Shown here: one piece after another, positions 7,244 to 64,000 of the stretch | Layout of the letters: each line of letters opens with the position of its first letter | Position numbering within the stretch: the first letter of the stretch is position 1 | Assembly: GCA_019638485.1 (NCBI GenBank) | Contig: JAHBTP010000005.1 | Location: 23,093-87,092 of the forward strand | DNA from: Ferruginibacter sp. | GTDB lineage: Bacteria; Bacteroidota; Bacteroidia; Chitinophagales; Chitinophagaceae | Reading direction: 5' to 3' | DNA length: 64,000 bases | Notes under the pieces: model-generated | Databases searched by the model: none | What the model was told of the DNA's origin: nothing | The model's input: the letters and a program-made list of their open reading frames with translations, nothing else | Position numbers and translations under genes: made by a program

Positions 7244-7374
7244 AAAATATTATTTTGGCTTTACAACAGCTATCTCTTACTTCATGTAGGAATGCATTCA
7301 TTAATCACTTAATCGTTAAAATTTCATTCCTGTTAAAAAAGAGATTAGTTTATGCCTTATCGTTAGTTTTAAAA

Positions 7375-8577
7375 TTAATCTGCGATTGCCTGTCCCTCAT
7401 ATATATCCTGATAGCCTTCTGAAACGACCTGTTCACCTCCCTTTAGCCCGGTTTTAATTTCTATCAGGTTTCCATAAGCCATTCCAATAGTTACCATAAC
7501 CTTTTGAGCCTCTTTGTTCCCGTTCTTTCCATTACGCGCAATAAAGACATATTTACCCGTTTCATCACTTTGTACTGCATTAACCGGTACCAGTACAGCA
7601 TTTTCAGATGAATAGTTCATCACTTTCATTACAGCGGTTTGATTAGGTTTTAACATGGGGTCAAACGGAACATGGGCTTCTGCTATAAAGCCGCGCAATG
7701 TGGGGTCTATAGATTGGCCAACAAGAGACAATGCAGCGCTTACCTCTTTATTTAAATCAGGAAAAAATATTAGTACAGGTGTTCCCTTTTTTAATTGACT
7801 AATATAATTTTCAGGAATATTAGAAACTACTTTCAGACTGGTATTATTTACAATTTTTATTTGTGGGCCTTGAGCTGTCATACCTGTAAAAAGTTCTCCA
7901 ACTCTAATACTCACTACATCAGCCACTCCATTTACATCACTATATACATTAGTGGTATTTGCTTGTTCAACAGCTACCTTTACTTGTTCGTTAGCTGCTT
8001 TGAGTTGGTCTTCCAATGCCTCTACATTTGTTCTGGCCTGAATGAGTTGTACTTCGGTACCAATACCTTGTTTCCACAAATTATTTTGTCGCTCGTAAAT
8101 ATTTCTTGCAAAATTGAGTTGTGTTTTTATTCCATTTAATTGTTGACGAGCTGCAGTTACTTGTTGTTGAATAATAGCATCATCAAGTTTTAGCAACAGT
8201 TGTCCTTTTTTAACATACTGTCCTTCACGAATAAAAATTGACTTCACTTGTCCACCAGCCCCACGCGGTGAGATATAGGAAATATTATCTGCATCTACCT
8301 TTCCCTGCAAGTCAACATAATGTTTAAAATTTTGTACCGTAGCTGTGGTAAAGGCAACCAATTTAATTTTTGTTGAACTGGTAGCCGAGGTATCCAGAAT
8401 GGCCAGTTCATCTTCCAGCTTTTTAATTTTATCGGCTGTTTTATCTTGTAAGTTTCGCAGTTGTTGTAGTTCAGTTTTTAGATTAGTTAGTTTATCTGTT
8501 TTTGTGCCACCACAAGCCAACAAAAAAAGTGAGCTAACAGCTAAGGGTATGCGATAATTAATTCTCATAAAATGCAA
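7375..8577 (-). CDS. efflux RND transporter periplasmic adaptor (MFP) lipoprotein
   Basis: Has a lipobox (LLACGG), a coiled-coil hairpin and barrel-sandwich motifs. It lies between the TolC and RND genes. Confidence 0.9.
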   Translation of the reverse strand: MHFMRINYRIPLAVSSLFLLACGGTKTDKLTNLKTELQQLRNLQDKTADKIKKLEDELAILDTSATSSTKIKLVAFTTATVQNFKHYVDLQGKVDADNISYISPRGAGGQVKSIFIREGQYVKKGQLLLKLDDAIIQQQVTAARQQLNGIKTQLNFARNIYERQNNLWKQGIGTEVQLIQARTNVEALEDQLKAANEQVKVAVEQANTTNVYSDVNGVADVVSIRVGELFTGMTAQGPQIKIVNNTSLKVVSNIPENYISQLKKGTPVLIFFPDLNKEVSAALSLVGQSIDPTLRGFIAEAHVPFDPMLKPNQTAVMKVMNYSSENAVLVPVNAVQSDETGKYVFIARNGKNGNKEAQKVMVTIGMAYGNLIEIKTGLKGGEQVVSEGYQDIYEGQAIAD

Positions 8578-8587
8578 TAATTAAAGA

Positions 8588-10000
8588 TTATAATTTTCCT
8601 GCGGCTTTTAAATAATTTACTTTAGCAATAATGGCATCATAGAGTGCGCTATAGTAATTATTTTGAGCCATTTTTAATTCCGTTTGTGCGGTATAAATTT
8701 CCTGGTTGCTACCCAATCCTTGTTGATATTTCAACACTGTAGTATTGTACACTTGTTCAGCCAGGTCCATATTTTTTCGTTGATTGTCTATTGTTTGAAC
8801 AGCAGAACGGATATTCAAGATAGCCTGCTTCACATCGTTATCAATAGAAGCTTCCATTTGCTGTAAGTTATTTTGTTGCTTTTGCCATTCATACTTTGCT
8901 TCAGCCACCTGTGCGCTTCTGGCAAAACCCCTAAATAGTGGGAAGGTTAGTTTTAAACCTACCAGATTGGTAGTAAACCAGGTTCCTCCATCAAAAAAGT
9001 CAAACTGGTTGCGCTGTGCATTTTTACTATAACTGCCAAATAGGGCAAGGGTGGGCAACCCGCTCAATTGATAGCGTTTTATATTATATTTATTAAGTCT
9101 TAATGCTTCTTTAAGCAATTGATAATCCTTTCGATCCTGATATTGATAAGCAGTATCCAGCAAGCCTTCTTTAACAGAATCTTCTGTAACTACATCAGTA
9201 AGAACAAGGGAATCTTTTTGTGGAAAATTCATCAGGAATTTCAATCCTGCCATACCGGCATTTAATCCATTTTGAACTTTTATCTTTTCTGTGATAAGAT
9301 TATTCAGTTGAACGCTTACCTTATCTACATCCAATTTTTCTGCAAATCCATTTTCATAAATTTTTCGGGTATCATTCAATAATTTTTCAAACCGTAAGAT
9401 ATTAGCATCAATGGAAGACATTTGTTGATTTCCCACTACTAATTGATAATAGATTTTTTCTACATTGGCTTTTATTTCTACCTGGGTAACCTCTGCTTTC
9501 TTACCTGCAAAGCGCATAGCTGTGTTGCGTGCTTGCAATCCTACAAAAACCTGCCCGTCAAAAAGTAATTGGGTTAAATCTATACCCCCACTCGCCTGCC
9601 AGTTAGAACCAAACTGAAAGGGCAATGAACCGAAGCCGCCCTCAGGAAAAGTAATGGTATTGCCATTTCCATCTTTAACCCCCTGATCAATGAGAACCTG
9701 ATAAGTAAAAGGAGAAATAAAATCAGGAATCACTTGTGTAGGCACATCAAAATAGCGTGATACAGACACATTACTGCTAATATTCGGTAAGGCTGCAGAG
9801 GTAACGCCTCTATTTACTTCCTTTTGAATCTTGATATCAAGGAGTGCATTCTTAACAGTTGCTGAATTTTTTAAAGCATAATCAACAGCCTGTTCCACTG
9901 AAAAATGTTGTACTGATGGCGTTTGAGCCAAAGTACTCATCATCGGGAAATTTGCAAAGAGGAAAAGGGTGCAAATAAAGAATTTTATATTGTATGTCAT
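8588..10000 (-). CDS. TolC family outer membrane efflux protein
   Basis: 470 aa with a signal peptide and the two-repeat TolC architecture. Its start abuts the TetR stop (10000/10001). Confidence 0.9.
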   Translation of the reverse strand: MTYNIKFFICTLFLFANFPMMSTLAQTPSVQHFSVEQAVDYALKNSATVKNALLDIKIQKEVNRGVTSAALPNISSNVSVSRYFDVPTQVIPDFISPFTYQVLIDQGVKDGNGNTITFPEGGFGSLPFQFGSNWQASGGIDLTQLLFDGQVFVGLQARNTAMRFAGKKAEVTQVEIKANVEKIYYQLVVGNQQMSSIDANILRFEKLLNDTRKIYENGFAEKLDVDKVSVQLNNLITEKIKVQNGLNAGMAGLKFLMNFPQKDSLVLTDVVTEDSVKEGLLDTAYQYQDRKDYQLLKEALRLNKYNIKRYQLSGLPTLALFGSYSKNAQRNQFDFFDGGTWFTTNLVGLKLTFPLFRGFARSAQVAEAKYEWQKQQNNLQQMEASIDNDVKQAILNIRSAVQTIDNQRKNMDLAEQVYNTTVLKYQQGLGSNQEIYTAQTELKMAQNNYYSALYDAIIAKVNYLKAAGKL

Positions 10001-10642
10001 CTATTTTTTTTGCTTTTGATCTTCTAATTGTTGTTGATATTTTTGAATAAGCTTATATCCCTTGGGAGTAACAAGTCCATACATAAAATGATAGTGTAAT
10101 TCATCGAATACAAATTCCATAGACAATTTTAATTGTTGAGAAACTTCGCGGTTAAATAAAAAATTTACTGCCTCGGTTCTAAATCGCGCAATAAGCTCCA
10201 CATGAAAATCCGTGCGGTACAATCCTTCTTCAATTCCTCTAAGCACATTTGATTTTACAATATCAAAGAGAAATTCATCTTTAAATTTTCTAAATTTCTC
10301 AAAACTTTTCGGGTGGTATTTTTGCAAATCATATAGCAAGCCGGGGTTCATTGTCTGCATTATTCCCCGATTCATATCCATAGAAAGAAAAATTTCATGG
10401 ATAGCATCTTTTGATTGAATCCTTTCCAACCTGCACATTTCACAATTATGATCTAACATCACTGTTACAATAGCGTCAACCAAATCATTTTTATCTTTGA
10501 AATACTGGTAAATTGTTTTTTTACTCATGCCCAAATGTGTGGCTAGGTCAGCCATACTCATGCTGCGAATACCATAACGCAATACCAAATCGCGTCCTTC
10601 TCTAATTATTCGGTCCCGTTGGGAGAGTTCATTTTCTGTCAT
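10001..10642 (-). CDS. TetR/AcrR family transcriptional regulator
   Basis: Has the N-terminal HTH (GIRSMSMADLATHLGMSKKTIYQYFKDKNDLV). It is the first gene of the efflux operon. Confidence 0.9.
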   Translation of the reverse strand: MTENELSQRDRIIREGRDLVLRYGIRSMSMADLATHLGMSKKTIYQYFKDKNDLVDAIVTVMLDHNCEMCRLERIQSKDAIHEIFLSMDMNRGIMQTMNPGLLYDLQKYHPKSFEKFRKFKDEFLFDIVKSNVLRGIEEGLYRTDFHVELIARFRTEAVNFLFNREVSQQLKLSMEFVFDELHYHFMYGLVTPKGYKLIQKYQQQLEDQKQKK

Positions 10643-27148: not shown

Positions 27149-27220
27149 GGCCTCGTAGTACAATGGATAGTATAAGAGTTTCCGAAGCTCCAGATCCAGG
27201 TTCGATTCCTGGCGAGGCCA
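27149..27220 (+). tRNA. tRNA-Arg (anticodon CCG)
   Basis: Folded by hand. The acceptor stem GGCCTCG/CGAGGCC has 7 bp and the D stem is GTAC/GTAT. The anticodon loop is TT-CCG-AA, the variable loop is 4 nt, and the T arm is CCAGG-TTCGATT-CCTGG. The discriminator is A and CCA is not encoded. Confidence 0.9.
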
Positions 27221-28145: not shown

Positions 28146-28717
28146 AAAGCTCAGCGAGTTCCCGCCCTAAAGCAAAATTCGGAATTATGTAAACAGGGAA
28201 CAATACCTCATCACGGTACTTTGTAGGTACTACTCCAAACAGATGGGGAGCTGGCGCTCCCGCCCTAAAGCAAAATTCGGAATTATGTAAACATGGAACA
28301 ATACCTCATCACGGTACTTTGTAGGTACTACTCCAAACAGATGGGGAGCTGGCGCTCCCGCCCTAAAGCAAAATTCGGATTTATGCAAACAGGGAACAAT
28401 ACCTCATCACGGTACTTTGTAGGTACTACTCCAAACAGATGGGGAGCTGGCGCTCCCGCCCTAAAGCAAAATTCGGATTTATGTAAACAGGAAACAATAC
28501 CTCGGCTTGGTACTTTATGGGGGGTATTTCAAAAAGGGGGAAACTGCGTTTCCCACCCCGGTTCAAAGTTCGAATTTTTAAGAACACAAAACAATACCTC
28601 ACTATGGTACTTTGTGGAGTAAATAACCCTTTCGGGCGGGGGCTACGCCCCCACCCCAATTCAAAGTTCGGATTATTTCAAACACGAAACAATACCCAAA
28701 ATTCGGGATTTATGGAG
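28146..28717. repeat. tandem array of six ~98-bp units, each with a GC hairpin plus conserved core
   Basis: Hairpins start at 28148, 28246, 28344, 28442, 28538 and 28638, a period of 96-100 nt. Units 1-3 are nearly identical. Units 4-5 are diverged but keep the core (AAAGTTCGRATT...AAACA.GAAACAATACC..GGTACTTTRT) and a hairpin with a different sequence. Confidence 0.85.
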
Positions 28718-29336
28718 CATAACTATTACGGATACACGAATTTATTTTTTATAGGGTAGAAGAAAATCTTTAATATCCTTCATCTGAATATTTGGAATGT
28801 ACACTTCAAAATGCCCTTATTGTTTTGTCAGGATAATATTTGTCGGTATATTGAATTCTGGTTCATCACAGTGTCTTGTCCTAAAAAAAGTTGACACATT
28901 TTTGTTGTTAATCTTGACACGAATTTACTTTTTTATTTTAATCCTAAATACACTTTACATTTTTTATTTTGGCATTACCGATGAAAGCGGATGCAGCCTC
29001 TGCAGTGGGCAATCTGCAAGGAATTAAATTGGTGTCTGACGAAGTAATTCGTTTATGAAGGCCGTTAGTAATATCCGTTTCCTTCATTGGATTACTTTGG
29101 AAGCCTTTAATACCTAAACAATACCTAACCTACTCCCATTTGCCCCTCTCTTTCCTTTGGTTTTTAATAGTTCTTCCACAAGCATTTTGGTGTGGCTTCA
29201 CCATTGAGGAAACCTATTCAGCATTTGGCGCAAACCGTTTAATAATAAATCCGGGACCAAGTACATTAATGGCATGTGCTAATATGAAAATTGAAACCCT
29301 TTTTTAAAACCCTTAAAAACAACAGACAGCGTTGAA

Positions 29337-29511
29337 AGTATTGGCGCAGTATGGATATTCAAGGCTCATCTGCTGGTACTTCCGTCGAATGCTGAACTAA
29401 TGTACAAGTTTATTTCAAAGGCTGAACAATGAACATTCAGCCCGAAGCCGAGGATGAATAATGAAACTGCTGCTAACGATGGCCTCCTTCAGCCCATATT
29501 GCGCCAATACT
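29337..29511. repeat. palindromic MITE/REP-like element
   Basis: The 18-bp terminal inverted repeat is AGTATTGGCGCAGTATGG (29337-29354) and CCATATTGCGCCAATACT (29494-29511), matching at 17 of 18 positions. It encloses 139 bp of non-coding sequence containing an internal GCTGAA...TTCAGC hairpin. Confidence 0.5.
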
Positions 29512-29582
29512 ATTGTTGGCGGTTCGTGCTTCTGAATTGCCCAAAGAATTATCCGATAATAGGGGGGTATATTAATAAAGAA

Positions 29583-30458
29583 TTAATAAAGAATTACTAA
29601 ACCTCCACAAAAATTTGGAGGGAAACTCGAATTTTCATTTCCAATCCAATTATAATTTTTTCTATCAAAAATTCGGTAAAATGTTTGACTATTTACTTTG
29701 GGAGGATGTGTTTCGTTGTCATAAAATAATCGAATAGGACTATTATAATGATTATTTGACGTTTGTATTTCAGGAGTCTCTTTGCTGATATTTTCATAAA
29801 AGCATTCTACTCCTAAGAATAGAATTTCTTCTGAGGTTATAATATTTTGTTCAGAAATGTCAACAAAGAAACTGGCATTTAAAAAATATTCTTTTTTTAA
29901 GATTATTGGTTTCTCAAGTAGTTCGTCAGATGGCATTCCTTTATCATCAGCTTTATAAATATGAAGCTTACAAATAAGGTTAGGAATTCGTTTGTTTAAT
30001 TTAACAGGAAGAAATACTTTTTCGATTTTATAGGTTTTCTTAATTTGTGTAAGATCAATTTTTATGGCATACTCCATTGACGTAGTAAATACGAGTGTGT
30101 TATGAGTAGAATATTTAAATGTACCGACATTTTGTCTCTCTCTCATTTTTGTGACAACTACTTCTGGGAGCATATTGATTTTCCTTTCAAGAAAAATAGT
30201 ATCTGAATTATGTATAACTACATTTCTTTTACTATACCCCGAATATTCAACCAATAAAGTGTCGAGTTCATTTATTTTAAGATTTACTACACCATAACGA
30301 TTGGAGTGAAATCCTTTATTGCTATTAACTACTTTAATTGTTGCATAAGGCAAAGGAGTTTTGTCCTCTGAGTCCGCTATAAGGATACTTTTATTTTGTG
30401 AAAATGAAATGAGCGTTTGCAAAAGCAAAAATAAGATTAACGGTATTCTTAAATTCAT
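29583..30458 (-). CDS. secreted hypothetical protein with N-terminal carboxypeptidase-regulatory-like (CarbopepD_reg) domain
   Basis: A signal peptide is followed by ILIADSEDKTPLPYATIKVVNSNKGFHSNRYGVVNL, which is typical of that beta-sandwich domain. The remaining ~190 aa are unassigned. The gene is very AT-rich. Confidence 0.55.
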   Translation of the reverse strand: MNLRIPLILFLLLQTLISFSQNKSILIADSEDKTPLPYATIKVVNSNKGFHSNRYGVVNLKINELDTLLVEYSGYSKRNVVIHNSDTIFLERKINMLPEVVVTKMRERQNVGTFKYSTHNTLVFTTSMEYAIKIDLTQIKKTYKIEKVFLPVKLNKRIPNLICKLHIYKADDKGMPSDELLEKPIILKKEYFLNASFFVDISEQNIITSEEILFLGVECFYENISKETPEIQTSNNHYNSPIRLFYDNETHPPKVNSQTFYRIFDRKNYNWIGNENSSFPPNFCGGLVILY

Positions 30459-30521
30459 TTAAGAAGTTTTAAAAGAAAAGGTGCTTACATACAAAGATAA
30501 ACACCTTTTCAAGTAGAAAGA

Positions 30522-31313
30522 TTATTGTTTGGTATAACCACAGCTATGTCTTATCCAAAAAGTATGGCGACAGCAATACTCCCAAGGTGCGGCAATATCA
30601 TATTCACCAGTATAAGCATTGAAAAGATATTTAACCCCCGAACTACACCTTTTTCCAAATCCCCAAGCTGGATGTTCAGGCATATTACCATATGGAGGTT
30701 CAGAATCAATTTCATCATAACTAAAAGGTGTTTCTCGTATAAAACTAAATAAGTCAAAATTATCATCCTCTGGTCGAACTGTCGCAATTCTATTCATAGC
30801 TTCCCGATTAAATTCGCCAATCTTTATTCTTTCGTAATTTTCATTATTCAAGTATTCTGGAAGAATTGTGAGTATGTACCTGAATTCTTCAAGAGTTCTG
30901 AAAATTACACCATCGATTTGAACGATTTGGTCATTGTTTAAAATGTAATCCATATTTTGCTCCTTATCTAATCTTGAGCTTGCATATTCTTCGCCATATT
31001 TTTCCATTCCATCACATGTGAAATCAATTGAATGGAGATATTCTTGGACTTCCGCATGAGTACTGTTATCCAAGAAATCAAGAAAATCCTCAAAAACTTC
31101 ATAATTAGCAAATACTAAGAAGCCATAATTACTTAATGTTAATTGCTCTGGAGCAGGACGACCATACGTAGAAGATTTTGACTTTTCTAGGTGCGCATTT
31201 TCTGTAGCCAAAATCGGAGTTTTCAGAACATCCTTCTTGCTACAACTTAACGCAAGTGTAGTGCATAAAATTAGAGTTATAAGCGAGTTGTTTAATGCAA
31301 TTTTAGTTGTCAT
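30522..31313 (-). CDS. hypothetical lipoprotein
   Basis: Has a lipobox (LALSC) and an acidic central region. The Cys/aromatic-rich tail is CSSGVKYLFNAYTGEYDIAAPWEYCCRHTFWIRHSCGY. I recognised no family. Confidence 0.55.
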   Translation of the reverse strand: MTTKIALNNSLITLILCTTLALSCSKKDVLKTPILATENAHLEKSKSSTYGRPAPEQLTLSNYGFLVFANYEVFEDFLDFLDNSTHAEVQEYLHSIDFTCDGMEKYGEEYASSRLDKEQNMDYILNNDQIVQIDGVIFRTLEEFRYILTILPEYLNNENYERIKIGEFNREAMNRIATVRPEDDNFDLFSFIRETPFSYDEIDSEPPYGNMPEHPAWGFGKRCSSGVKYLFNAYTGEYDIAAPWEYCCRHTFWIRHSCGYTKQ

Positions 31314-31676
31314 TATTTTTGATTTTTAATTTTTTGTATTTAAAGTTCCTCTACAAGTTCCTCAAATGCGATGGTGGTGATCTTTTGTTTTCTTTCATAA
31401 TAGTTATTTTTGAGAACTGCGGTAGCATGACCGCCAACTATATAATTGTTGATGACACCCTCATCTTACACAGGGCCAGGATGGCCACTTTAGCAAAGTT
31501 TGAATGGGTATTGATGAATTAAAAAAATAGGTTTAAAATCTCTTTCAACAGATATTCATCCTTTTAATGAGTAATCTTATTTCATAAATTGAGATTATTT
31601 AAACAATTGATGGCTTTTTTATAACTTTATTCAAATACAGCAGTTTTTGTTTAAAACCGTTACCTTATTTAAGGCT

Positions 31677-42418: not shown

Positions 42419-43507
42419 TTATCTTTTAAACACAACGCGCTTGGGGTTAACACCGGAGCCTATAGAAATAACATACTGCTTCACACCTGCCGGATTAAAA
42501 CAAAATACTTCGCCGGGAGACACAAAGTCCTTTGAGTCACAAATGAACACATTACCATTCTCTTCATCAATATCTACAGAATAAACATTTGTTATAACCG
42601 TACCATCCGTAATAAAATTATCCCGAATAACACTATGATTCAACATATCATAAACTTTAATAGGACTGTTACCAAAATTATTAAAGAAAAAAGCGGTATT
42701 TCCAAAGCCCCTAATCTGACTATATTCAAAGCCTGCACCTAATTGAGCGACAACTTGATTTGTATTTGCATCAATAACTGCAGTGAATGCCGGAATCGGA
42801 GTTGTACCATAAATATCACCATAGCCTGTTACTAAAATTTCATGTTGATTACTAATTGCTAAACACTGAGGATTCAATCCAACTGTTACTCTTCGCAATT
42901 CAGAAAGATCACTCAGTTTGATTATAGACACTGTGCTGTCCACATTTGGATAGTTTAGTCCTCCACTATTCGCAACATACAAATAATCATCTGTTGCTAA
43001 AATTTGTTCCGGATTTGAACCCACAGTTATGCTTTGAGTGATGGTTAATGTAGTCGTATCAATAACAGAGACTGTGTTATCATAAGCTGTAACAAAAATC
43101 TTCCCATTTGCTTTAGCTGCGTAACGAGGATTTCGATTAGTAGTGCCATTCATAAATGAAATTCGGCTAATAAAAGAACCATTCATGGCGTTTAGTACAG
43201 TTACATTTCCCGAATTGTTCATTACAATATATAATTTGGAGCCATAAATCAGCATATCATTACCCACATCACCCAAGCCAGCCGTCATGGTTGGGTTTTG
43301 CTGTACAAAAAAATCAGGAAATACAGTACCGGATTCATTATCCCTATAGGCCAATTTTGCATTGTTGCCTCCGAATGCGCCTTCACTCAAAATATAAAGA
43401 CCTTTGGCAGGTTGGATGGGAGAAGGAATTTGAACGTCATTATTCTTGCTACAAGAAACTAATAATACTGTTACAGGCACTAACCAATTCAAGATTTTTC
43501 TTTTCAT
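42419..43507 (-). CDS. YncE/YVTN-type beta-propeller surface lipoprotein
   Basis: Has a lipobox (LLVSC) and repeated propeller blades (LYIVMNNSGNVTVL, IFVTAYDNTVSVID, LYVANSGG). Its ATG overlaps the upstream receptor stop (ATGA at 43504-43507). Confidence 0.75.
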   Translation of the reverse strand: MKRKILNWLVPVTVLLVSCSKNNDVQIPSPIQPAKGLYILSEGAFGGNNAKLAYRDNESGTVFPDFFVQQNPTMTAGLGDVGNDMLIYGSKLYIVMNNSGNVTVLNAMNGSFISRISFMNGTTNRNPRYAAKANGKIFVTAYDNTVSVIDTTTLTITQSITVGSNPEQILATDDYLYVANSGGLNYPNVDSTVSIIKLSDLSELRRVTVGLNPQCLAISNQHEILVTGYGDIYGTTPIPAFTAVIDANTNQVVAQLGAGFEYSQIRGFGNTAFFFNNFGNSPIKVYDMLNHSVIRDNFITDGTVITNVYSVDIDEENGNVFICDSKDFVSPGEVFCFNPAGVKQYVISIGSGVNPKRVVFKR

Positions 43508-45573
43508 TTTTTTGCTTTTTTATTTTCAAGAATTAATCCTATACGCCAATTCGATCCGGGCATAGGGAAGAATTTTACTACTTCGTATGATTTATTAAAA
43601 ATATTATTCCATTCAAATTGTGATTTCACTTTCCATCTTCCTTTACTGCTCCAGGAATAACTGGTATGAATATCACTAAGCACATATCCGGCAATATAAT
43701 TATCTGTGTTTTGAGCACCTTGTCTATAGCGATATCCGGAAAGCAGCATATTATATGCACAGGAAAAGTTTTTTATAACTGCTGCAATTCGTCCGCTTCC
43801 ATTATGCTCGGGGATAAAAGGAATCTGCTTATTGTATGCATAACTCATTCTGTCTGTTTTATCTTTTGCATCCTGAAAGCCATAATTAATAGAAAGGTTT
43901 AATTGTACTTTTTTATTCAATCGCAAATCGGCAAATAGGGCTGCATCAACACCGAGTGTTTGAACCTTTCCAATATTTGCCATTGACCATTGAAATAAAT
44001 TATTACGAGGGAGTGCCACAATTTTATCTTTCACATGCATCAAATAACCATCCACAGTAATCGAAAGCATAGAAACAGCAGGCCCTACATTATTACGTTC
44101 ATAGGTTAACCCAATATCGAATTGATTTGCTAGTTCCGGCTTAAGATTAGCATTACCTACATAAGTATAAAACTGATCATCTAATGATGGCGCGCGAAAT
44201 ATCTCTTTGTAAAATGCACGTACCCTTAGCGGCAAATAACTTAGTGGTTGAAATGAAAAAGATAATGCAGGAGATGGTCTGCTAATATCTCTACCCGCAT
44301 TACCAAAGGCTACGGTTTGAGAGATGTGGGTATATAAAAGATTTCCCAGAAATTCAATACGATGTTTTTTCCAATTAATAAAAGCATTTGACATTATTGT
44401 ATTACGGCGTGGAGATACAAAACCTGTAATAAATGTATCCTTTCGTGAAAGGATATTAAAGAACAAATCGGTGGCAATGCCAGAAGAAAGAGTTTCATTT
44501 ATCTTCCATCCACCGGCAAATGAAAAATAATGCTCTTGTTGAACGAAATCATTTTTAAGATATCCTGCACTATTCGAAAAATCATTATCAATATATACCT
44601 GCCTGTCTATTGAAGACTTCGCAGCTAATTGCAGTTGGATATTTGACAACAAGTTCTTTCTCCATATTAACTGAGCAAAACCGTGTCGGTTATTTAATCT
44701 TTGTGACGACTTAGGGTTATAAAAGATAACTGAGCCCGGTAAGCCACGATTTGATTGGTAATAAAAGGTTTTTATCAATAGTGTGCTGCTATCCCTTAAC
44801 ATTACCGGTAAATCAGATTCAATTTTCCATTGTTTAATATCAGCATTAGAGCGATACTGCAGGGTATCATTATGTTCATAGCCCTTAAAGGAATAATTAC
44901 CATCTGCCTGTTGGTAAAATCCATTAAGCAACCAACTCACCCGATTATTTAATTTTGAACGCATAAACAGCGTGGGACTAATTGAGCCAAATGATGCTCC
45001 TGATAACTTAATTAATACCTCATCAGGTTCATCCTTCTTTGTTGCATAAGAATTAATGGCTAATACAGCAACTTGTGAAAAGGCTCGTGCGGGTTGAAGC
45101 CAGGGCGATGGTGCCGATTGATATAGGCTGATATCCTTAACATTGTCCATTGAAATTCTTCCCAAATCAATTTGACCCGCTCGTGCATCCGCCATTATAA
45201 TTCCATCATACAAAACTCCGGTATGTTGTGCTCCCAAGCTGCGAACAGAAATTGTTTTAAGCCCTCCAATGCCACCATAGTCTTTCACCATTACACCTGA
45301 GAAAAACTTTACGGCATCAGCAACTGATACACTATTTAAGGTTTGTAATTCTTTTTCACTCAGCCTTTGAACAGCCACAGGTGAGGCACTTTCTGAAGAT
45401 GTGTTATGAACAACTACCGGCTTTAACGTGTCTATATTTTGAGCAATAACAAATTTGTCTTGACAAAGTGCAAGAATAAGCAACCACAGATATCGTAAAA
45501 AATATTTCAAACCAAATGGTTTAAAAGCCCACGAGGGAAAAGAAGGGTTGATAAATGCCAAAATCAATGACAC
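43504..45573 (-). CDS. TonB-dependent receptor, BtuB-like by context
   Basis: Has a plug domain (ISVRSLGAQHTGVLYDGI) and barrel motifs. It is the first gene after a cobalamin riboswitch. The start is uncertain: GTG at 45573, or TTG at 45510 giving MKYFLRYLWLLILALC. Confidence 0.85.
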   Translation of the reverse strand: MSLILAFINPSFPSWAFKPFGLKYFLRYLWLLILALCQDKFVIAQNIDTLKPVVVHNTSSESASPVAVQRLSEKELQTLNSVSVADAVKFFSGVMVKDYGGIGGLKTISVRSLGAQHTGVLYDGIIMADARAGQIDLGRISMDNVKDISLYQSAPSPWLQPARAFSQVAVLAINSYATKKDEPDEVLIKLSGASFGSISPTLFMRSKLNNRVSWLLNGFYQQADGNYSFKGYEHNDTLQYRSNADIKQWKIESDLPVMLRDSSTLLIKTFYYQSNRGLPGSVIFYNPKSSQRLNNRHGFAQLIWRKNLLSNIQLQLAAKSSIDRQVYIDNDFSNSAGYLKNDFVQQEHYFSFAGGWKINETLSSGIATDLFFNILSRKDTFITGFVSPRRNTIMSNAFINWKKHRIEFLGNLLYTHISQTVAFGNAGRDISRPSPALSFSFQPLSYLPLRVRAFYKEIFRAPSLDDQFYTYVGNANLKPELANQFDIGLTYERNNVGPAVSMLSITVDGYLMHVKDKIVALPRNNLFQWSMANIGKVQTLGVDAALFADLRLNKKVQLNLSINYGFQDAKDKTDRMSYAYNKQIPFIPEHNGSGRIAAVIKNFSCAYNMLLSGYRYRQGAQNTDNYIAGYVLSDIHTSYSWSSKGRWKVKSQFEWNNIFNKSYEVVKFFPMPGSNWRIGLILENKKAKK

Positions 45574-45611
45574 AATCCTTCGCTTTTCACCCGAAAGCTT
45601 TGATTAATGTA

Positions 45612-45795
45612 GAAACGGTACTGGCAGGTCTTCTGGCTAATTTTCGAAAGTGGACCTTCCCGCAATAGTGCAGTGGTGAAGCATTACTTTCGAGCCAACC
45701 GGAAAAATTCGGTTGACAACATTTTACAGCTACGGGGATAGCGCCGGAATTAAACCGGACTTCCCTATTAAGCCCATAGTGGGCACCAATCCAAT
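45612..45795 (-). promoter_or_regulatory. cobalamin (B12) riboswitch
   Basis: The minus strand reads GGTGCCCACTATGGGCTTAATAGGGAAGTCCGGTTTAATTCCGGCGCTATCCCCGTAGCTGTAAA...CACCACTGCACTATTGCGGGAAGGT...AGCCAGAAGACCTGCCAG. This matches the conserved AdoCbl riboswitch core and B12-box region. A GCTTTC...GAAAAGC hairpin follows, before the receptor start. Confidence 0.85.
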
Positions 45796-45796
45796 G

Positions 45797-45804
45797 CAAA
45801 TGTA
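45797..45804 (-). promoter_or_regulatory. Bacteroidota-type -7 promoter box for the riboswitch transcript
   Basis: TACATTTG (TAnnTTTG) on the minus strand, immediately upstream of the riboswitch 5' end. Confidence 0.35.
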
Positions 45805-45879
45805 TTCATAATATTTTTATTCCGTCAAAAGTTTCAGGAACAACCACAGATATTTGCGATATTGTAAAGTAGGTAGTAT

Positions 45880-59396: not shown

Positions 59397-60560
59397 TTAT
59401 ATCGAGTCTTCGATATTAGGAAAAACAGGTAGGGGTTTTCCTGTTTTAAAAGCTTGAGCAAAGGTAGTGGCAAAATGCAAGGCTTCATCTATCACATTAT
59501 GCATATCCATATAACGGTAGGTGGCTAATCGGCCAAGAAAAGAAAAACCATTCAATGTCGCAGCCTTCTTTCGATAATCGAATAATATTCTTTTATCTGC
59601 GTCTAATCGTTTGGGATAGTAAGGCTCATCACTTGGTGTTGTTTCGTGGCTATATTCTTTAAAATAAACAGTTTTATCATGTTTCTCCCATGGGGTAAAG
59701 TGCTTATGCTCTGAAATTCTTGTATATGGTACTGTCTCATCACAAAAATTCATTTGAGCGGTTCCCTGGAAATCACCATCTTGAACATTGCGCTCAAATG
59801 TTACGGTACGATATCCTAAGCGACCAAAACAAAATTGAAAAAATGTATCTAACGGTCCGGTATAAAAAATGTGATTATACTCTTCGTGCTGTTCTCCGGG
59901 AAAGAATTTTCTGTTTAGATGAAGTTTTATTGCGGGGCTATCAATCATCTTCTCCATCACAGCCGAATATCCTTCAACCGGGATACCTGTATATGGATGA
60001 GGGTGGTAGTTATCATCATAATTAAACCGAACAGGAATACGTTTTAAAATAGATGCAGGAAGTTCACGAGGTTCACACCCCCATTGCTTTTTTGTGTAAC
60101 CATAAAAGAAAGCACGATATAAATCCTTGCCTATGAAAGCCAAGGCTTGGTCCTCAAAGTTTGTAGGATGCAGAATAGAATGGTCAGCAAGTGAACTCAA
60201 AAAAATCTTGGCCTGTTTTGGATCCAGCGCTTTACCAAAATACTGATTAATAGTCATCAGATTTATAGGTAAAGGAAAGATTTTATCATCCACCCTTGCT
60301 TTTACCCTGTGGACATAAGGCCTGAATTCTACAAAAGAATTTACAAAATCCCAGATTTCTTTCTTATCTGTATTGAATATATGCGGGCCATAATGATGTA
60401 CCATTATCCCTGTTTCTTCATCACGAGATGTGTGACAATTCCCACCTATGTGGCTACGTTCATCAATTATATCAATAGTACAATCTAATTGCTTTATTAG
60501 CCTATTTGCCAATACGCACCCGGAAAACCCGGCCCCAACAATTAAAAATTTAGCAGCCAT
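59397..60560 (-). CDS. glf: UDP-galactopyranose mutase
   Basis: IVGAGFSGCVLA (FAD-binding), HIGGNCHT, HHYGPHIFNT and FLGRLATYRY are Glf signature blocks. Confidence 0.93.
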   Translation of the reverse strand: MAAKFLIVGAGFSGCVLANRLIKQLDCTIDIIDERSHIGGNCHTSRDEETGIMVHHYGPHIFNTDKKEIWDFVNSFVEFRPYVHRVKARVDDKIFPLPINLMTINQYFGKALDPKQAKIFLSSLADHSILHPTNFEDQALAFIGKDLYRAFFYGYTKKQWGCEPRELPASILKRIPVRFNYDDNYHPHPYTGIPVEGYSAVMEKMIDSPAIKLHLNRKFFPGEQHEEYNHIFYTGPLDTFFQFCFGRLGYRTVTFERNVQDGDFQGTAQMNFCDETVPYTRISEHKHFTPWEKHDKTVYFKEYSHETTPSDEPYYPKRLDADKRILFDYRKKAATLNGFSFLGRLATYRYMDMHNVIDEALHFATTFAQAFKTGKPLPVFPNIEDSI

Positions 60561-60610
60561 TTAATTCGTATTAATGTAAAAATAAAAAATCAATGCTTGA
60601 AATCGCCCGG

Positions 60611-60719
60611 GTATTGCCGAAGGCGGGGAGTTTTAGCACTACCGCTCAACTGAATTACCAGAGTTTAAATTTAGCAAATTTGTTTCATTGAAAAACTTTC
60701 GCCGCGCTTTTGGCAATAC
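60611..60719. repeat. palindromic MITE/REP-like element related to the one at 29337-29511
   Basis: The inverted repeat GTATTGCCGAAGGCGGGG (60611-60628) and CCGCGCTTTTGGCAATAC (60702-60719) matches at 15 of 18 positions. It shares the GTATTGNC...GNCAATAC termini and the trailing TAT(T)GTTG with the first element. Confidence 0.4.
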
Positions 60720-60851
60720 TATGTTGTGTGTAGCCAGATGGGTGTCGAAATTATCTAAGATAGGGTCATATGAAAAAATACCTCTTTCAAATTAATAATC
60801 TAAATCTGATTACCATAGATTTATTCCCTTTTACAATAACTTAAACTCAAA

Positions 60852-61160
60852 TTACAAGCATTTGTAAGTTCTTAAAATTTTCTTCATATACTGTATGGTA
60901 GGTTTTGCTTCAATTAGATTAAAGTAACTCCAACAAATCATATTTGCCAGTGGCTCATAGCTACCTTCTCTTGGAACTCCAATAAAATTTATAATCTTCC
61001 TTTTATAGTAAGTACGTAAACTATCTAAAGCTTGTAGAGGTAGGTTACTTATCTGTACATAATACCTGCCGGAATAGTCTCTATTTGACGGAGTGTTAAT
61101 ATTACTATCAATCATTTGGTATTGTTCCCTAATACAATAGTACAAAAGGTACCCTCTCAT
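60852..61160 (-). CDS. hypothetical protein (102 aa), last gene of unknown operon
   Basis: ORF only. It is co-directional with, and 11 nt downstream of, the preceding ORF. Tyr/Arg/Ile-rich with no TM segment. Confidence 0.5.
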   Translation of the reverse strand: MRGYLLYYCIREQYQMIDSNINTPSNRDYSGRYYVQISNLPLQALDSLRTYYKRKIINFIGVPREGSYEPLANMICWSYFNLIEAKPTIQYMKKILRTYKCL

Positions 61161-61171
61161 CCCCGTTCAAC

Positions 61172-61615
61172 TTATTTTTTTATCTTCCACCCTTCAGCTA
61201 AGGAAGGAGTATTTTCGCTAAAAAAAATAGAACTTCCATTATTACCCTTATAATATATCTCCAAATAATCTTCAGATTCATTTATAACTAAATCTCCGGT
61301 TAATTGCCTTACATGTATATTCCCTTTTTTAACAACTTTTCTTTGATTTCTATCAAATAGGTATATTGGTTTTGAATCAACCATACTTATGTATCTTAAA
61401 AAGCCGTAGTATCCTAAGTATTGCTTCTCGAGTATAATATATCTATCATTAATTTCTTGAGTTGTGCATGCACCATTAATATAGACTGTGCTATCGGAAC
61501 ATGTTGAAACTGAAATTGGGATATAAAAAATAACGTGCATTATCAAAGTAATACTAATACTAAGTATTGCAAAAGATGCTAAGCACCCAAAAACAGACTT
61601 TAATTTACTATTCAT
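61172..61615 (-). CDS. hypothetical membrane-anchored protein (147 aa)
   Basis: One N-terminal TM helix (CLASFAILSISITLIMHVIFYIPI) followed by ~110 aa. Its start overlaps the upstream stop (ATGA at 61612-61615). Confidence 0.6.
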   Translation of the reverse strand: MNSKLKSVFGCLASFAILSISITLIMHVIFYIPISVSTCSDSTVYINGACTTQEINDRYIILEKQYLGYYGFLRYISMVDSKPIYLFDRNQRKVVKKGNIHVRQLTGDLVINESEDYLEIYYKGNNGSSIFFSENTPSLAEGWKIKK

Positions 61616-62859
61616 AATGCATCAAGTGGTATAGAAAATGAAAAACTTACATTCACAATCTTTACATCTGAATAGTTGTTGTAATTCATACCAATCATAT
61701 TTCTCTTTTGAAAATCCCTATAAGTAGCATTTGTTACAGAAATCCCTTTACTAAAATCTAAACCCATATAATTGGTTTTAGGATTCCATACACCTAAGGG
61801 CTGCTCGCCAATAAAATTAAACCCATCAACAATGTATACACCTAATTGCAAAATGGATATCTCAAACTCATTTTCCAATCTTTTAATTTTACCTTTTGCA
61901 GCTATATGCATCGTGGTTGAACCAACAGCAGCAAAATATTCATTCCATTCTACATTAAAAAAATCTTCTTCTTTACTTTCGCTTCTAAAATAATACCTTT
62001 CAATTAATGGCTCAAATGTGTCTCTAAAAAGATCGAATGAAAAAGTGCCATAGTCAGTAACAGAATCAATCTCTTGGGGAATAGTAATAATAGCATCTTC
62101 ATACATTTTTCTAATTTGCTTTACTATAAACTCCTTTGATTTATCATTTTTCCATTTTGCTATAGTAAACAATCCTTCTTCAAAAATTCCATTATATACC
62201 TCTTGAGCTATTTGAAATTTTAAGGCCCAGTCCATTTTTAATAAATAAGTAATAGGTTTAACTTTTTTAGCATCGATGTTTATTTTACCTGAAAACCAAA
62301 CTAATTGACAAGAAGTTGCTAATTGCCATTTATGAAACTCCATTATTCTTGGGATCTCTTTTACGACATTAATTTTCAACATTTCTTCTGGCTTGCTTGG
62401 AAAACCTTTATGTTTTTCTTTCCCATTTTCAAAATAATGTACATTATAAAATAGCCAATCAACATTTGGGCTTTTCATATACCAGTTACTTTTTAGGCTG
62501 ATTTTCACAAAAAATGTATTGTTTGCTAAAACCTTAACAGGGAATTTGTGAAGTTCTGAGATAACGTTAAACGCAATAAAATCCCAAATGGAAATATAGA
62601 TTTCGGTATTTGCGGGAATATTTTTGGTAACACCATAAATAAAAACATCATCGCCGTAATCAACGACGTCAATTTTCTTTTTCTGAGCGTCACACCAAAA
62701 CGAATTTGTTATTTCTACAGCAATACCTTTTAAATCTAATAAGGATTTATCTAACACAGGAGGTTCCTCATCCCGTGAACTAAAGTTAAACAACACAGAA
62801 TTATCATCATAATATTCTTTGCTATCCAATACTTCTTCTCCCCAGATATTGGTATCCAT
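61612..62859 (-). CDS. hypothetical protein (415 aa), no recognised family
   Basis: A long uninterrupted ORF in a very AT-rich context, where stops are frequent. It has no signal peptide or TM segment. Confidence 0.65.
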   Translation of the reverse strand: MDTNIWGEEVLDSKEYYDDNSVLFNFSSRDEEPPVLDKSLLDLKGIAVEITNSFWCDAQKKKIDVVDYGDDVFIYGVTKNIPANTEIYISIWDFIAFNVISELHKFPVKVLANNTFFVKISLKSNWYMKSPNVDWLFYNVHYFENGKEKHKGFPSKPEEMLKINVVKEIPRIMEFHKWQLATSCQLVWFSGKINIDAKKVKPITYLLKMDWALKFQIAQEVYNGIFEEGLFTIAKWKNDKSKEFIVKQIRKMYEDAIITIPQEIDSVTDYGTFSFDLFRDTFEPLIERYYFRSESKEEDFFNVEWNEYFAAVGSTTMHIAAKGKIKRLENEFEISILQLGVYIVDGFNFIGEQPLGVWNPKTNYMGLDFSKGISVTNATYRDFQKRNMIGMNYNNYSDVKIVNVSFSFSIPLDAL

Positions 62860-62912
62860 AATTAAAATATTTAAAAGTTAAATGATTATCCTGAACTTGA
62901 AATACATAAACC

Positions 62913-64000
62913 CTAATCATGCTTACAATTACACCCGCTTTGTGGAACATCACAACATTCCGAGAATACTTTCTTATAGAGTTTAGCTCTTTCCCCAGGT
63001 TCGGATATTTGCTCTATAGTTTGGATAGCTTGCTGCAACTTTTGATTTTGAAGTTCACTATTTAATGCATCAGCTTCTTGTAATTTTTGATTATAGCAAT
63101 CCAAACTTTCTCCTTGTCCAAGTAAAGCATCTACAACTAAAGACGGAGTCCGTAATATTCTGTTTGTAACATCAAGAATAATTCCTTCTACTTTCCTTCC
63201 TTCGTATACTTGACTTAATCCCTTTTTTACTCGCACATATTCTATAATTTCTGGTTCAGGTAGCGGGTCTATACAATTATTCAGTTCTTCAGTAACTTTT
63301 TCAATTAAACCCACTGTTTTACCTTCATAATCTCGTATGCTGCAAAGTTGAGTGTAAATCATTCGTTTAGCCATTTCGACGAATTCCCGATCTCTCATAA
63401 CTTCATCTAAGAAATCATGCAGATTAGCAAGTCGAGCTGATTTTCTATTTTCTAGCCCACCATAAAAAACAAAGGAAACATCCACTAAGTGAGTTATACT
63501 CACAAACTCTTGCAAGAGTTGGCGAAAAACAAAGTTTAATACCCTGCTTTTATTAATGTTTTCCAGCTCTCTTACGATTGTCTCTTCATATTCATTTATT
63601 GAAGTGGAGGATGTTTCGGAATTTATCTCAATTTGTCTAAGTGAATCTGATTTTGCAACATGGTGGGATGTTGCGCCAGTCAACATTTTAACTTGTGTCT
63701 CAACAGCATTATTTACAGTAGTAGTTTCTGAGGATGTACCTCCTCCACCTCCACCACCGCCAATTTTGAACACACCCAGATTTAGTCCAAAGCTACCTCC
63801 GGCTTTCCAGTTTTTGGTTTTGGTATTTATTTCTTGTACGCTTTTGTTTGTAGCATGCCCAACTTCATTTTGAATGGTATTCTGCAAATCTTCAGCACTG
63901 CTCTCACTATAACTATCCAGTACATTTTGAGCCAACATTTTTGTAACCTGCTCTTGCTGATATGTACGAATCGTGATAGTGGTTCTTTCCCCGGGAAGAA
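62913..64000 (-). CDS. hypothetical protein, N-terminus beyond window (at least 361 aa in-window)
   Basis: The frame stays open upstream of the first in-window ATG (63938) to the window edge (LPGERTTITIRTYQQEQVTK-MLAQ...). It has an S/T/N-rich segment, a Gly8 run, a helical C-terminal half and a Cys-rich tail (CCDVPQSGCNCKHD). Confidence 0.65.
   Translation of the reverse strand, partial: LPGERTTITIRTYQQEQVTKMLAQNVLDSYSESSAEDLQNTIQNEVGHATNKSVQEINTKTKNWKAGGSFGLNLGVFKIGGGGGGGGTSSETTTVNNAVETQVKMLTGATSHHVAKSDSLRQIEINSETSSTSINEYEETIVRELENINKSRVLNFVFRQLLQEFVSITHLVDVSFVFYGGLENRKSARLANLHDFLDEVMRDREFVEMAKRMIYTQLCSIRDYEGKTVGLIEKVTEELNNCIDPLPEPEIIEYVRVKKGLSQVYEGRKVEGIILDVTNRILRTPSLVVDALLGQGESLDCYNQKLQEADALNSELQNQKLQQAIQTIEQISEPGERAKLYKKVFSECCDVPQSGCNCKHD

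Follow-up and report, generated by a model that had tools for sequence, protein, structure and literature searches.

An integron-type gene cassette in a polysaccharide locus of Ferruginibacter, with a probable polymorphic-toxin module as its cargo

At the right-hand end of a 64,000-nucleotide stretch of contig JAHBTP010000005.1 from Ferruginibacter sp. (the whole stretch is called the window below), four co-directional open reading frames (ORFs A to D) stand on the minus strand beside genes for polysaccharide biosynthesis. A sequence-only reading had taken them for one AT-rich operon of proteins without recognisable family, horizontally acquired and forming a candidate effector-immunity or defence module. 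What is this block, how did it come into a polysaccharide locus, and what do its products do? We have found that the block is one integron-type gene cassette, whose structure and mobility can be observed directly, and that the explanation as a whole, an integron cassette with a toxin-immunity module in which ORF A would be the delivery component, is probably right.

The four-gene block as an integron-type gene cassette

The block is only partly contained in the window. An exact-protein look-up of ORF B returned 20 contigs, labelled L001 and so on, among which L001 (47.8 kb) is identical to the window across the 1,001-nt stretch compared. This contig completes ORF A to 604 aa as the first gene of the block; beyond it lie a divergent methyltransferase gene and then genes for glycosyltransferases, asparagine synthase, formyltransferase and nucleotidyl-transferase. 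Since polysaccharide genes are present on both sides, the block lies in the middle of the polysaccharide locus rather than at its end, and since A is complete and first, with the divergent methyltransferase gene next, the operon does not continue upstream as had been supposed. The features of the block are as follows.

60852-61160, minus strand: ORF D, 102 aa (ORF listing and translation)
61172-61615, minus strand: ORF C, 147 aa (ORF listing and translation)
61612-62859, minus strand: ORF B, 415 aa (ORF listing and translation)
62913-64000 (window end, open), minus strand: ORF A, C-terminal 361 of 604 codons; start codon at ~64727, outside the window
60598-60729, minus strand: attC, a 132-nt imperfect palindrome; R'' core ACACAAC, then imperfect L''/L' arms
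60604 to ~64828 (= L001:8032-12256; in-window part 60604-64000), minus strand: integron-type gene cassette, 4,225 bp, extending 828 bp past the window edge
60603-60604, minus strand: 3' cassette/host junction, ...CAATACCCGGGCG|ATTTCAAGC, a non-attC G|AT site 43 nt upstream of the glf start codon

The ORF listing reproduced the four ORFs and their joins as first described, i.e., 53 nt between A and B, a 4-nt ATGA stop/start overlap between B and C, and 11 nt between C and D. They are genuine genes and not chance ORFs, since the A family counts at least 617 homologues, the family of B counts 1,124 cluster representatives, and the four-gene arrangement has been assembled independently in more than 10 samples. 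An Rfam scan showed no family within the block, and a scan for sigma-70 promoters stayed under the shuffle expectation, the sigma-70 model being not applicable to Bacteroidota.

What bounds the block is a palindrome. The sequence-only reading had noticed one at 60611-60719 and placed it at the end of the polysaccharide locus; the imperfect palindrome is real, and it is the block's own 3' attC, which also disposes of it as a terminator or a locus boundary. Six attC sites were used to make a covariance model, and the window site reaches 116.8 bits in it (E 1e-27). In the RNAalifold consensus of the six sites, 15 of the 23 pairs show compensatory changes; the AAC and GTT cores are invariant in the alignment, and the 19-nt arms vary in sequence yet stay complementary. 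Folded as single-strand DNA, the attC gives a z of -3.5, better than 200/200 shuffles. In the window copy, host sequence (G|ATTTCA) stands in place of the R' core.

The cassette unit starts G|TTGTGTGTAACCAG and ends with the 132-nt palindrome. At 14 of 15 positions the 5' end, GTTGTGTGTAACCAG, can pair with the R'' region of the same unit (reverse complement GTTGTGTGTAGCCAG). The same holds for the cassette that follows it in the contig L011, where the 5' end GTTAGCGGCCACCCATT and the R'' reverse complement GTTAGCGGCCGCCCATT agree at 16 of 17 positions. In total, three L011 cassettes show this complementarity (the one before attC_b, the four-gene block, and the one after the block), and so does the upstream cassette of L101, while the match is poor for the L011 cassette ending at attC_c. 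Complementarity between the 5' end and the unit's own R'' is a signature of circular permutation, and therefore points to a G|TT crossover by an integron integrase.

In addition, the unit is found in arrays. L011, from a metagenome-assembled genome (MAG) of an uncultured Ferruginibacter, is an array of at least 5 co-oriented attC elements 1.6-4.2 kb apart, and the covariance-model search finds attC on both sides of A-modules in L011, L016, L040 and L058. By BLAST against L001, the segment L001:8031-12251/12256 recurs at 99.7-100 % identity with unrelated flanks in L011, L007, L008 (JGI 3300009868) and L101 (an activated-sludge assembly). That is, the cassette stands behind four different upstream cassettes, one in each of these contigs, and in one non-array site; its polysaccharide context is seen in L001-L006. 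The horizontal acquisition proposed earlier is strongly supported by these observations, its mechanism being an attC-bounded integron cassette present in several arrays. The base composition that had been cited for it (23-27 % GC against 38-45 %) stands in part. ORFs B, C and D are indeed AT-rich, with GC of 0.306, 0.288 and 0.320 against 0.363 for the window (standard deviation of 1-kb windows 0.021), i.e., ~5-7 points lower, whereas A, at 0.371, is at backbone level and the contrast was overstated.

As side observations on the array, the other cassettes in L011:1-12753 encode mostly secreted or lipoprotein-like products of unassigned function, among them a 142-aa protein (5027-5455) built of YYGN(T/F)V..DQYGN repeats, and the last cassette carries three genes in reverse orientation.

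Overall, the block resembles integron cassettes and clusters of attC sites lacking integron-integrases (CALINs) in several respects: the attC, with its AAC...GTT cores, forms an imperfect palindrome that is conserved by structure and not by sequence; the 5' end is complementary to the unit's own R''; the arrays are co-oriented; and an identical cassette occurs at varied array positions. It differs in size, since typical integron cassettes hold one ORF in 0.5-1 kb and this one holds four genes in ~4.2 kb. Some further details count against the integron interpretation. No integron integrase was detected in the window or in any attC-bearing fetched locus by tblastn with an approximate IntI1 query, the contigs being short. 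The R' core GTTGTGT departs from GTTRRRY, and its RRRY part is loosely kept among the R' cores GTTGTGT, GTTATGC and GTTAGGC. The predicted attC stem has two 1x1 mismatches, an asymmetric R-L spacer (3 vs 6 nt), and no clear extrahelical or bulged bases. In L011:10937-11069 the five nucleotides preceding the crossover G read CCCAAACC|GTT against CCCGGGC|G in L001, L007 and L008, with the rest 99.8 % identical, and a simple G|TT crossover would not produce this difference. Finally, the uninterrupted methyltransferase-glf spacer, which would be the empty site, has 0 matches in the metagenomes of the Joint Genome Institute (JGI).

The host site lies between the divergent methyltransferase gene and glf, within the polysaccharide biosynthesis locus. 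The 3' junction listed above can also be rendered as ...CCCGGGCG|ATTTCAAGC, and the 5' junction in L001 reads ...TTTTTAATG|TTGTGTGTAACC; on this upstream side of the insertion in L001 the covariance model found no attC. After the crossover G, the array copy L007 continues with TTGTGTG, where the next cassette starts, and the window with the glf-upstream sequence. The cassette would have left an array by excision and entered a non-attC G|AT ("attG-like") site, where the methyltransferase gene and glf have their divergent promoter region; the enzyme responsible was probably an integron integrase whose gene lies elsewhere. The integrase and the pre-insertion state are deduced, since the fetched sequence contains neither an integrase nor an empty site; an exact-protein look-up of glf returned only contexts already holding the cassette. 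Integrons and CALINs have been reported in Bacteroidota (PMC8618304), and integron integrases are described as also inserting cassettes off-target into genomes, at non-classical attG sites (PMC8618304; PMC12901181, citing Loot et al. 2024). The solo copy at a G|NT site outside an array resembles such attG-type insertions.

The insertion has changed the surroundings of its host genes. The glf gene and the downstream glycosyltransferase genes are cut off from the divergent intergenic region which they once had in common with the methyltransferase gene (window 60560-60604; L001:7960-8031), and they may depend on read-through across 4.2 kb plus the attC. The disrupted methyltransferase-cassette-glf arrangement is kept at 99.0-99.8 % identity in at least 6 samples. 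L008 has mixed flanks: the attC of another cassette lies to the left of the four-gene cassette (1-51), and the 15 nt to the right (4266-4280) equal the polysaccharide-locus junction, which reflects either a mixed population or an assembly join. We also considered the block as a part of the polysaccharide pathway, and rejected this because the block is mobile and its functions are unrelated.

ORF B, its DUF6402 domain and the small ORFs C and D

What does the cassette carry? It had been stated that no family could be recognised for any of the four proteins, and for ORF B this does not hold. B matches Pfam DUF6402 (PF19940) with an E of 6e-20 and 71.9 bits against a gathering cut-off of 26.4, over model positions 3-272 of 278. 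The AlphaFold2 (AF2) model of B, with a predicted local distance difference test (pLDDT) of 90, and the Pfam match divide the protein into three parts, which are listed here together with ORF C.

N-terminal end of ORF B, minus strand: leader, MDTNIWGEEVLDSK..., unstructured in the AF2 model; no signal peptide
62401-62715, minus strand: ORF B residues ~49-153, immunoglobulin (Ig)-like beta-sandwich (AF2 model)
61642-62364, minus strand: ORF B residues 166-406, DUF6402 toxin domain (Pfam)
61172-61615, minus strand: ORF C, N-terminal membrane anchor and ~110-aa domain

Foldseek aligns only 98-149 columns, ~1/3 of the model of B, with TMq ~0.2; most of the matches have Ig-type folds, and we attribute them to the predicted N-terminal beta-sandwich. 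The top match, at E 9e-5, is 9jg8_C, a chain of a Bacteroides VgrG cargo complex belonging to a type VI secretion system (T6SS).

The nature of the DUF6402 domain can be judged from its company. A word-indexed protein search with the B profile gave 7 proteins, and an exhaustive HMMER search was needed to obtain the 1,124 cluster representatives, in which the domain (~240 aa) is either free-standing or a C-terminal module. In a Pfam scan of ten larger proteins, DUF6402 is fused to DUF4280 (a PAAR-like spike tip), eCIS_core, PPC and M23/Ig. In a Crocinitomix MAG, a DUF6402 gene directly follows the tape-measure gene of a contractile injection system (CIS), within a locus for an extracellular contractile injection system (eCIS), and another DUF6402 gene lies just 3' of a VgrG gene. 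Because the domain is found behind or beside PAAR-like, eCIS and VgrG delivery elements, we regard it as a polymorphic toxin domain. No publication on DUF6402 turned up in our literature search.

ORF C was described as a single-pass membrane protein coupled to B, and both its single N-terminal hydrophobic segment (a 15-mer from residue 15 with a mean Kyte-Doolittle value of 2.35) and its overlap with B were reproduced. Homologues of C lie directly 3' of the two closest homologues of B. In L098, with an overlapping start, the two proteins are 47 % (B) and 32 % (C) identical to those of the window, and in L100 they are 55 % and 40 % identical; that is, the divergence of C tracks the divergence of B. 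Judged from these comparisons, the linkage of B and C holds across three lineages. A small downstream gene that diverges together with a toxin gene is the standard signature of an effector-immunity pair, and C is likely the cognate immunity protein of B. B would then be toxic in the envelope, and C would neutralise it there as a membrane-anchored immunity protein that shields the producer's envelope.

ORF D tells something of the history of the module. Scans of C and D against Pfam, NCBIfam, PHROGs and PADLOC gave nothing significant, and outside the cassette, homologues of D are limited to two Myroides genomes, where the proteins have 127 aa. Compared with one of them, the protein c1 of L012, D shows 57 % identity in an alignment running from c1 residue 30 on, so that the c1 signal peptide MGNQLKIAAIVFLSSFILFAQKK is absent from D. 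In both L012 and L013 (Myroides), c1 lies directly 3' of a Tae4-like gene, downstream of an A homologue. By this alignment, D is a 5'-truncated orphan copy of the signal-peptide protein that follows Tae4-type effectors, and the idea that D is a small soluble partner gives way to that of a remnant. Furthermore, the window A is 67 % identical to the Myroides A, while effectors with the leader type of B (NIWG..LDSK) are found in modules (L053, L056 and L098) in which A has only 34-36 % identity. The simplest history would be that a B-C pair replaced a Tae4-type effector together with the 5' end of that effector's immunity gene and left D behind, since D is truncated, A is nearest to that of Myroides, the leader comes from modules with a distant A, and the GC of B and C is under that of A.

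ORF A, the variable genes behind it and the rival explanations

The remaining protein, ORF A, is conserved. Its family has 182 loci in the species genomes of GTDB, from Bacteroidota, Acidobacteriota, Alpha- and Gammaproteobacteria and Actinomycetota, and yet A has no significant match in Pfam, NCBIfam, PHROGs, PADLOC or PDB sequences. In the case of PADLOC, the sole match for A is PtuB at E 0.029 and 12 bits, which is at chance level, and there is none for B, C or D. Apparent variants of A with greater length, 1,029 and 1,246 aa, were followed up as possible domain fusions and rejected: they are spurious overlapping ORFs in high-GC genomes, without informative fusions.

We have clustered the genes within ±6 kb of A at 80 loci, and the gene directly after A is hypervariable. 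At 12 loci it belongs to a cluster, c0, in which the member that was scanned has a Tae4 amidase domain; others resemble lysozyme/SLT, YkuD, GxSxG lipase and HExxH proteins by motif, below Pfam significance. The only recurrent neighbour is a 367-aa family (c2) found beside A at ~10 mainly proteobacterial loci, mostly upstream. A distant case extends the pattern to a conjugative plasmid.

Sinorhizobium meliloti conjugative plasmid pAK76 (NZ_CP066360.1; L105), 6188-10060: module that begins with a distant A homologue (658 aa), between traA and VirB/type IV secretion system genes

This homologue keeps the FPGE..T and ENIN..NFFFRQL motifs, and 34 nt after it comes a protein annotated by NCBI as "polymorphic toxin type 44 domain", followed by a 276-aa hypothetical protein.

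The variable genes have a common beginning. Of the 55 genes immediately behind A, 26 have the motif N[PIT][WY] within their first 45 residues; among 651 other ORFs 14 have it (Fisher p = 2.5e-22), and most of these 14 are second or third effectors of the same arrays, with near-identical leaders. A hydrophobic N-terminus is found in 0 of the 37 leader-bearing effectors, while under a strict threshold it is found in 19 of the 30 genes that follow them, and in more by eye; these following genes mostly encode a signal peptide, a lipobox or a membrane anchor. The architecture of A plus a variable toxin is thus observed across phyla. Since variable toxins follow A, share a leader and are themselves followed by envelope-type genes, A can be regarded as the genomic counterpart of VgrG, PAAR, Rhs or LXG. 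In the literature on integron-borne interbacterial toxins, we found no description of the A family. The effector-immunity reading stands for B, with its DUF6402 toxin domain, and for C, which co-varies with B; it was the large conserved protein that had been misplaced, as A is the constant part and the variable gene after it is the toxin.

This arrangement can be compared with the polymorphic toxin systems (Zhang, Aravind et al. 2012; Tae4/Tai4 and VgrG- or PAAR-linked toxins). There too, variable C-terminal toxins stand behind a constant N-terminal region, the immunity gene is immediately downstream and often has a signal peptide, alternative pairs form arrays with orphan or truncated immunity genes, and the same domains (Tae4, DUF6402, Ntox44) occur. 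The difference is that the constant partner here is a separately encoded upstream protein of ~600 aa and not VgrG, PAAR, Hcp, Rhs, CdiA or LXG, and that the constant part of the effector itself is only a leader of ~15-25 residues (F-x-N-P-W / N-I-W-G).

How A might act is suggested by its structure and by one conserved segment.

63690-63803, minus strand: ORF A residues 309-346, conserved segment, candidate membrane-inserting hairpin; GxxxGxxxG, Gly-rich turn, S/T-rich return arm
63738-63761, minus strand: Gly8 run in ORF A, turn of the candidate hairpin

The S/T-rich tract, the Cys-rich tail and the Gly8 run noticed earlier in A are all present, the last one base off its first coordinates. 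The family consensus of the segment is AGGSxGxNLGxxxIGGGGGGG, and at residues 312-316, between S/T-rich flanks, the hydrophobic moment for beta periodicity reaches its maximum of about 2.0. An amphipathic Gly-rich segment with S/T-rich flanks is typical of the insertion hairpins of beta-pore-forming toxins. The AF2 model of A (pLDDT 70, predicted TM score 0.60) consists of very long beta-strands broken by helical and S/T-rich inserts, and its Foldseek list from the PDB is almost entirely made of beta-pore-forming toxins, i.e., Cry35Ab1, Tpp80Aa1, Cry78Aa, monalysin, aerolysin and cholesterol-dependent cytolysins. Separately, a Foldseek search of BFVD gave one structural homologue of the A family, an uncharacterised 642-aa protein of the giant virus Yasminevirus sp. 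GU-2018 (A0A5K0U6Q4), at E 8e-11, with 18 % identity over 433 columns.

Based on the above analyses, the cargo of the cassette would be a polymorphic-toxin module, with A as its constant component and B as an exchangeable effector. A would recognise the N-terminal leader common to the effectors and assist their passage through a membrane, and among the possible kinds of protein it would most likely be a beta-hairpin-inserting one, similar to pore-forming toxins. Taken alone, the proposal that A is a membrane-inserting delivery component recognising the leader is the one we prefer, but it is tentative and the weakest step of the explanation. The stronger form, in which the A family would be a self-contained and cassette-sized delivery system, built on a protein resembling a pore-forming toxin, that recognises leaders and brings envelope-targeting effectors into competitors without T6SS, type VII secretion, contact-dependent inhibition (CDI) or Rhs, is slightly less likely still, although its chance is substantial.

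Several results speak against this functional reading. None of the Foldseek matches of A in the PDB is significant (E 0.03-1.2, probability <=0.16, very low TM scores), and the model itself is only moderately confident at its pLDDT of 70. Sequence profiles link A to no pore-forming family, either in scans of 60 members or in a PDB profile search. The leader type of B does not track the phylogeny of A, and therefore a specific fit between A and the leader is weakened. A and B both lack an export signal, and their exit from the producer cell is unexplained. For the DUF6402 domain of B, neither the PDB profile search nor Foldseek gave a solved relative, and no catalytic motif was recognised. The likeness of A to binary AB toxins (anthrax PA with LF/EF) and to aerolysin/Tpp is a functional analogy only: a constant component with a hairpin stands beside enzymes with a common N-terminal docking region, but there is no significant match (best Foldseek E 0.03; Binary_toxB_2 in one member at E 0.075), A has no signal peptide, and the targets appear bacterial.

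The main rival holds that the block is a cargo module of a contractile machine, with A as an adaptor, chaperone or co-effector. Effectors tagged by the leader would be loaded by A onto the spike of a T6SS(iii) or into an eCIS, either of them encoded elsewhere in the genome, and A would not itself cross or open membranes. The toxins themselves agree with it, being classic cargo (Tae4, and DUF6402 beside VgrG, with DUF4280 or eCIS_core, and in an eCIS locus); so do the absence of signal peptides from the effectors and the envelope location of the immunity proteins, as for periplasmic effectors of T6SS, as well as the weak resemblance of the Ig-like domain of B to 9jg8_C. Dedicated adaptors are moreover the rule in T6SS of Bacteroidota (PMC13402684). 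On the other hand, A (~600 aa) is far bigger than known adaptors, the module moves as a self-contained integron cassette, and the A family also occurs in Actinomycetota and a giant virus, both without T6SS. Only the c2 cluster recurs near A at the 80 loci, where the flanks were clustered and not scanned for Hcp, VgrG, PAAR, sheath or baseplate genes; in the cassette and among the called genes of L001 ±10 kb, there is no VgrG, Hcp, PAAR or adaptor gene. We consider this rival unlikely. An abortive-infection or other anti-phage module, with A as the sensor of infection and B as the killer of the host cell, was the other half of the sequence-only reading and is hardly tenable. Its layout of a large unassigned protein followed by small proteins is matched here, and integron cassettes are known as reservoirs of defence systems (bioRxiv 10.1101/2024.07.02.601686). 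Yet PADLOC gives no match beyond the chance-level one at E 0.03, the partners of A are peptidoglycan-amidase-type and other interbacterial toxins that are each followed by a signal-peptide or lipoprotein gene, i.e., envelope-targeted toxin/immunity pairs, alternative effectors are arrayed with identical leaders, and DUF6402 is tied to VgrG, PAAR and eCIS.

A further possibility is that A is a secreted pore-forming bacteriocin like the MACPF toxins of Bacteroides called BSAPs, and that the downstream toxin-immunity pairs are independent passengers. The conserved amphipathic Gly-rich hairpin and the very long predicted strands of A would suit such a role, its Foldseek list is rich in pore-forming toxins, and UniRef names a 48 %-identical homologue, P0023, "MACPF domain-containing protein". 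BSAP genes reportedly lie in lipopolysaccharide-glycan loci (McEneany et al. 2018) or in loci for outer-membrane proteins, and in both cases a candidate membrane-active protein of Bacteroidota is found in a polysaccharide locus. However, at E <= 1 Pfam MACPF (PF01823) matches neither A nor any of 60 members of its family, and PDB sequences give no match. The position in a polysaccharide locus is specific to one insertion of a cassette that sits in arrays elsewhere, and is not conserved; no conserved immunity or receptor-variant gene lies beside A; and the effector and immunity genes that accompany A are separate from it. The shared leader of the genes after A, moreover, argues for a functional link over mere co-location. 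This alternative is quite improbable.

Other features of the window and meaning of the finding

The window contains a second solo integron-type cassette, with the following features.

29330-31437, minus strand: second solo integron-type cassette, 2,108 bp, starting G|TTGGCGGT at 31438/31437
29324-29521, minus strand: its attC, 39 bits, E ~1e-7 (covariance model)
30522-31313, minus strand: ORF of 263 aa, lipoprotein-like, no Pfam match
29583-30458, minus strand: ORF of 291 aa, CarbopepD_reg_2

Its R'' core ACCGCCAAC is the exact complement of the 5' end (9/9), and its right junction reads ...TTTCAACG|CTGTCT, once more a non-attC site of the form G|NT. Apart from the cassettes, the window holds a cobalamin riboswitch at 45606-45805 (minus strand, 87 bits), just 5' of the ORF at 43504-45573, and a tRNA gene at 27149-27220 (plus strand). 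At 28293-28759 (plus strand), two overlapping ORF translations show a repeated peptide (..FGFMQTGNNTS.., ..FEFLRTQNNTS.., ..FGLFQTRNNTQ..), a pattern that suggests a tandem DNA repeat in an intergenic region.

What is new in these results is the A family as the constant partner of the toxins, the leader motif, and the fact that entire modules come packaged as integron cassettes capable of off-target insertion. Environmental Bacteroidota integrons move whole multi-gene antagonism modules of ~4 kb, and not just single genes. Such cassettes can land off-target inside surface-polysaccharide operons, and here the insertion has parted glf and the glycosyltransferase genes from their expected promoter region, in an arrangement that is stably kept in many samples. 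By these results DUF6402 is assigned to the antibacterial toxin domains, with use in T6SS, eCIS and A-type modules. Finally, the A family, which spans five phyla and has no relative in Pfam, NCBIfam or the PDB, marks polymorphic toxin loci much as VgrG, PAAR, Rhs and LXG do; with its help the genes downstream could be mined for many new effectors and immunity proteins, and it raises the testable possibility of a new delivery route.

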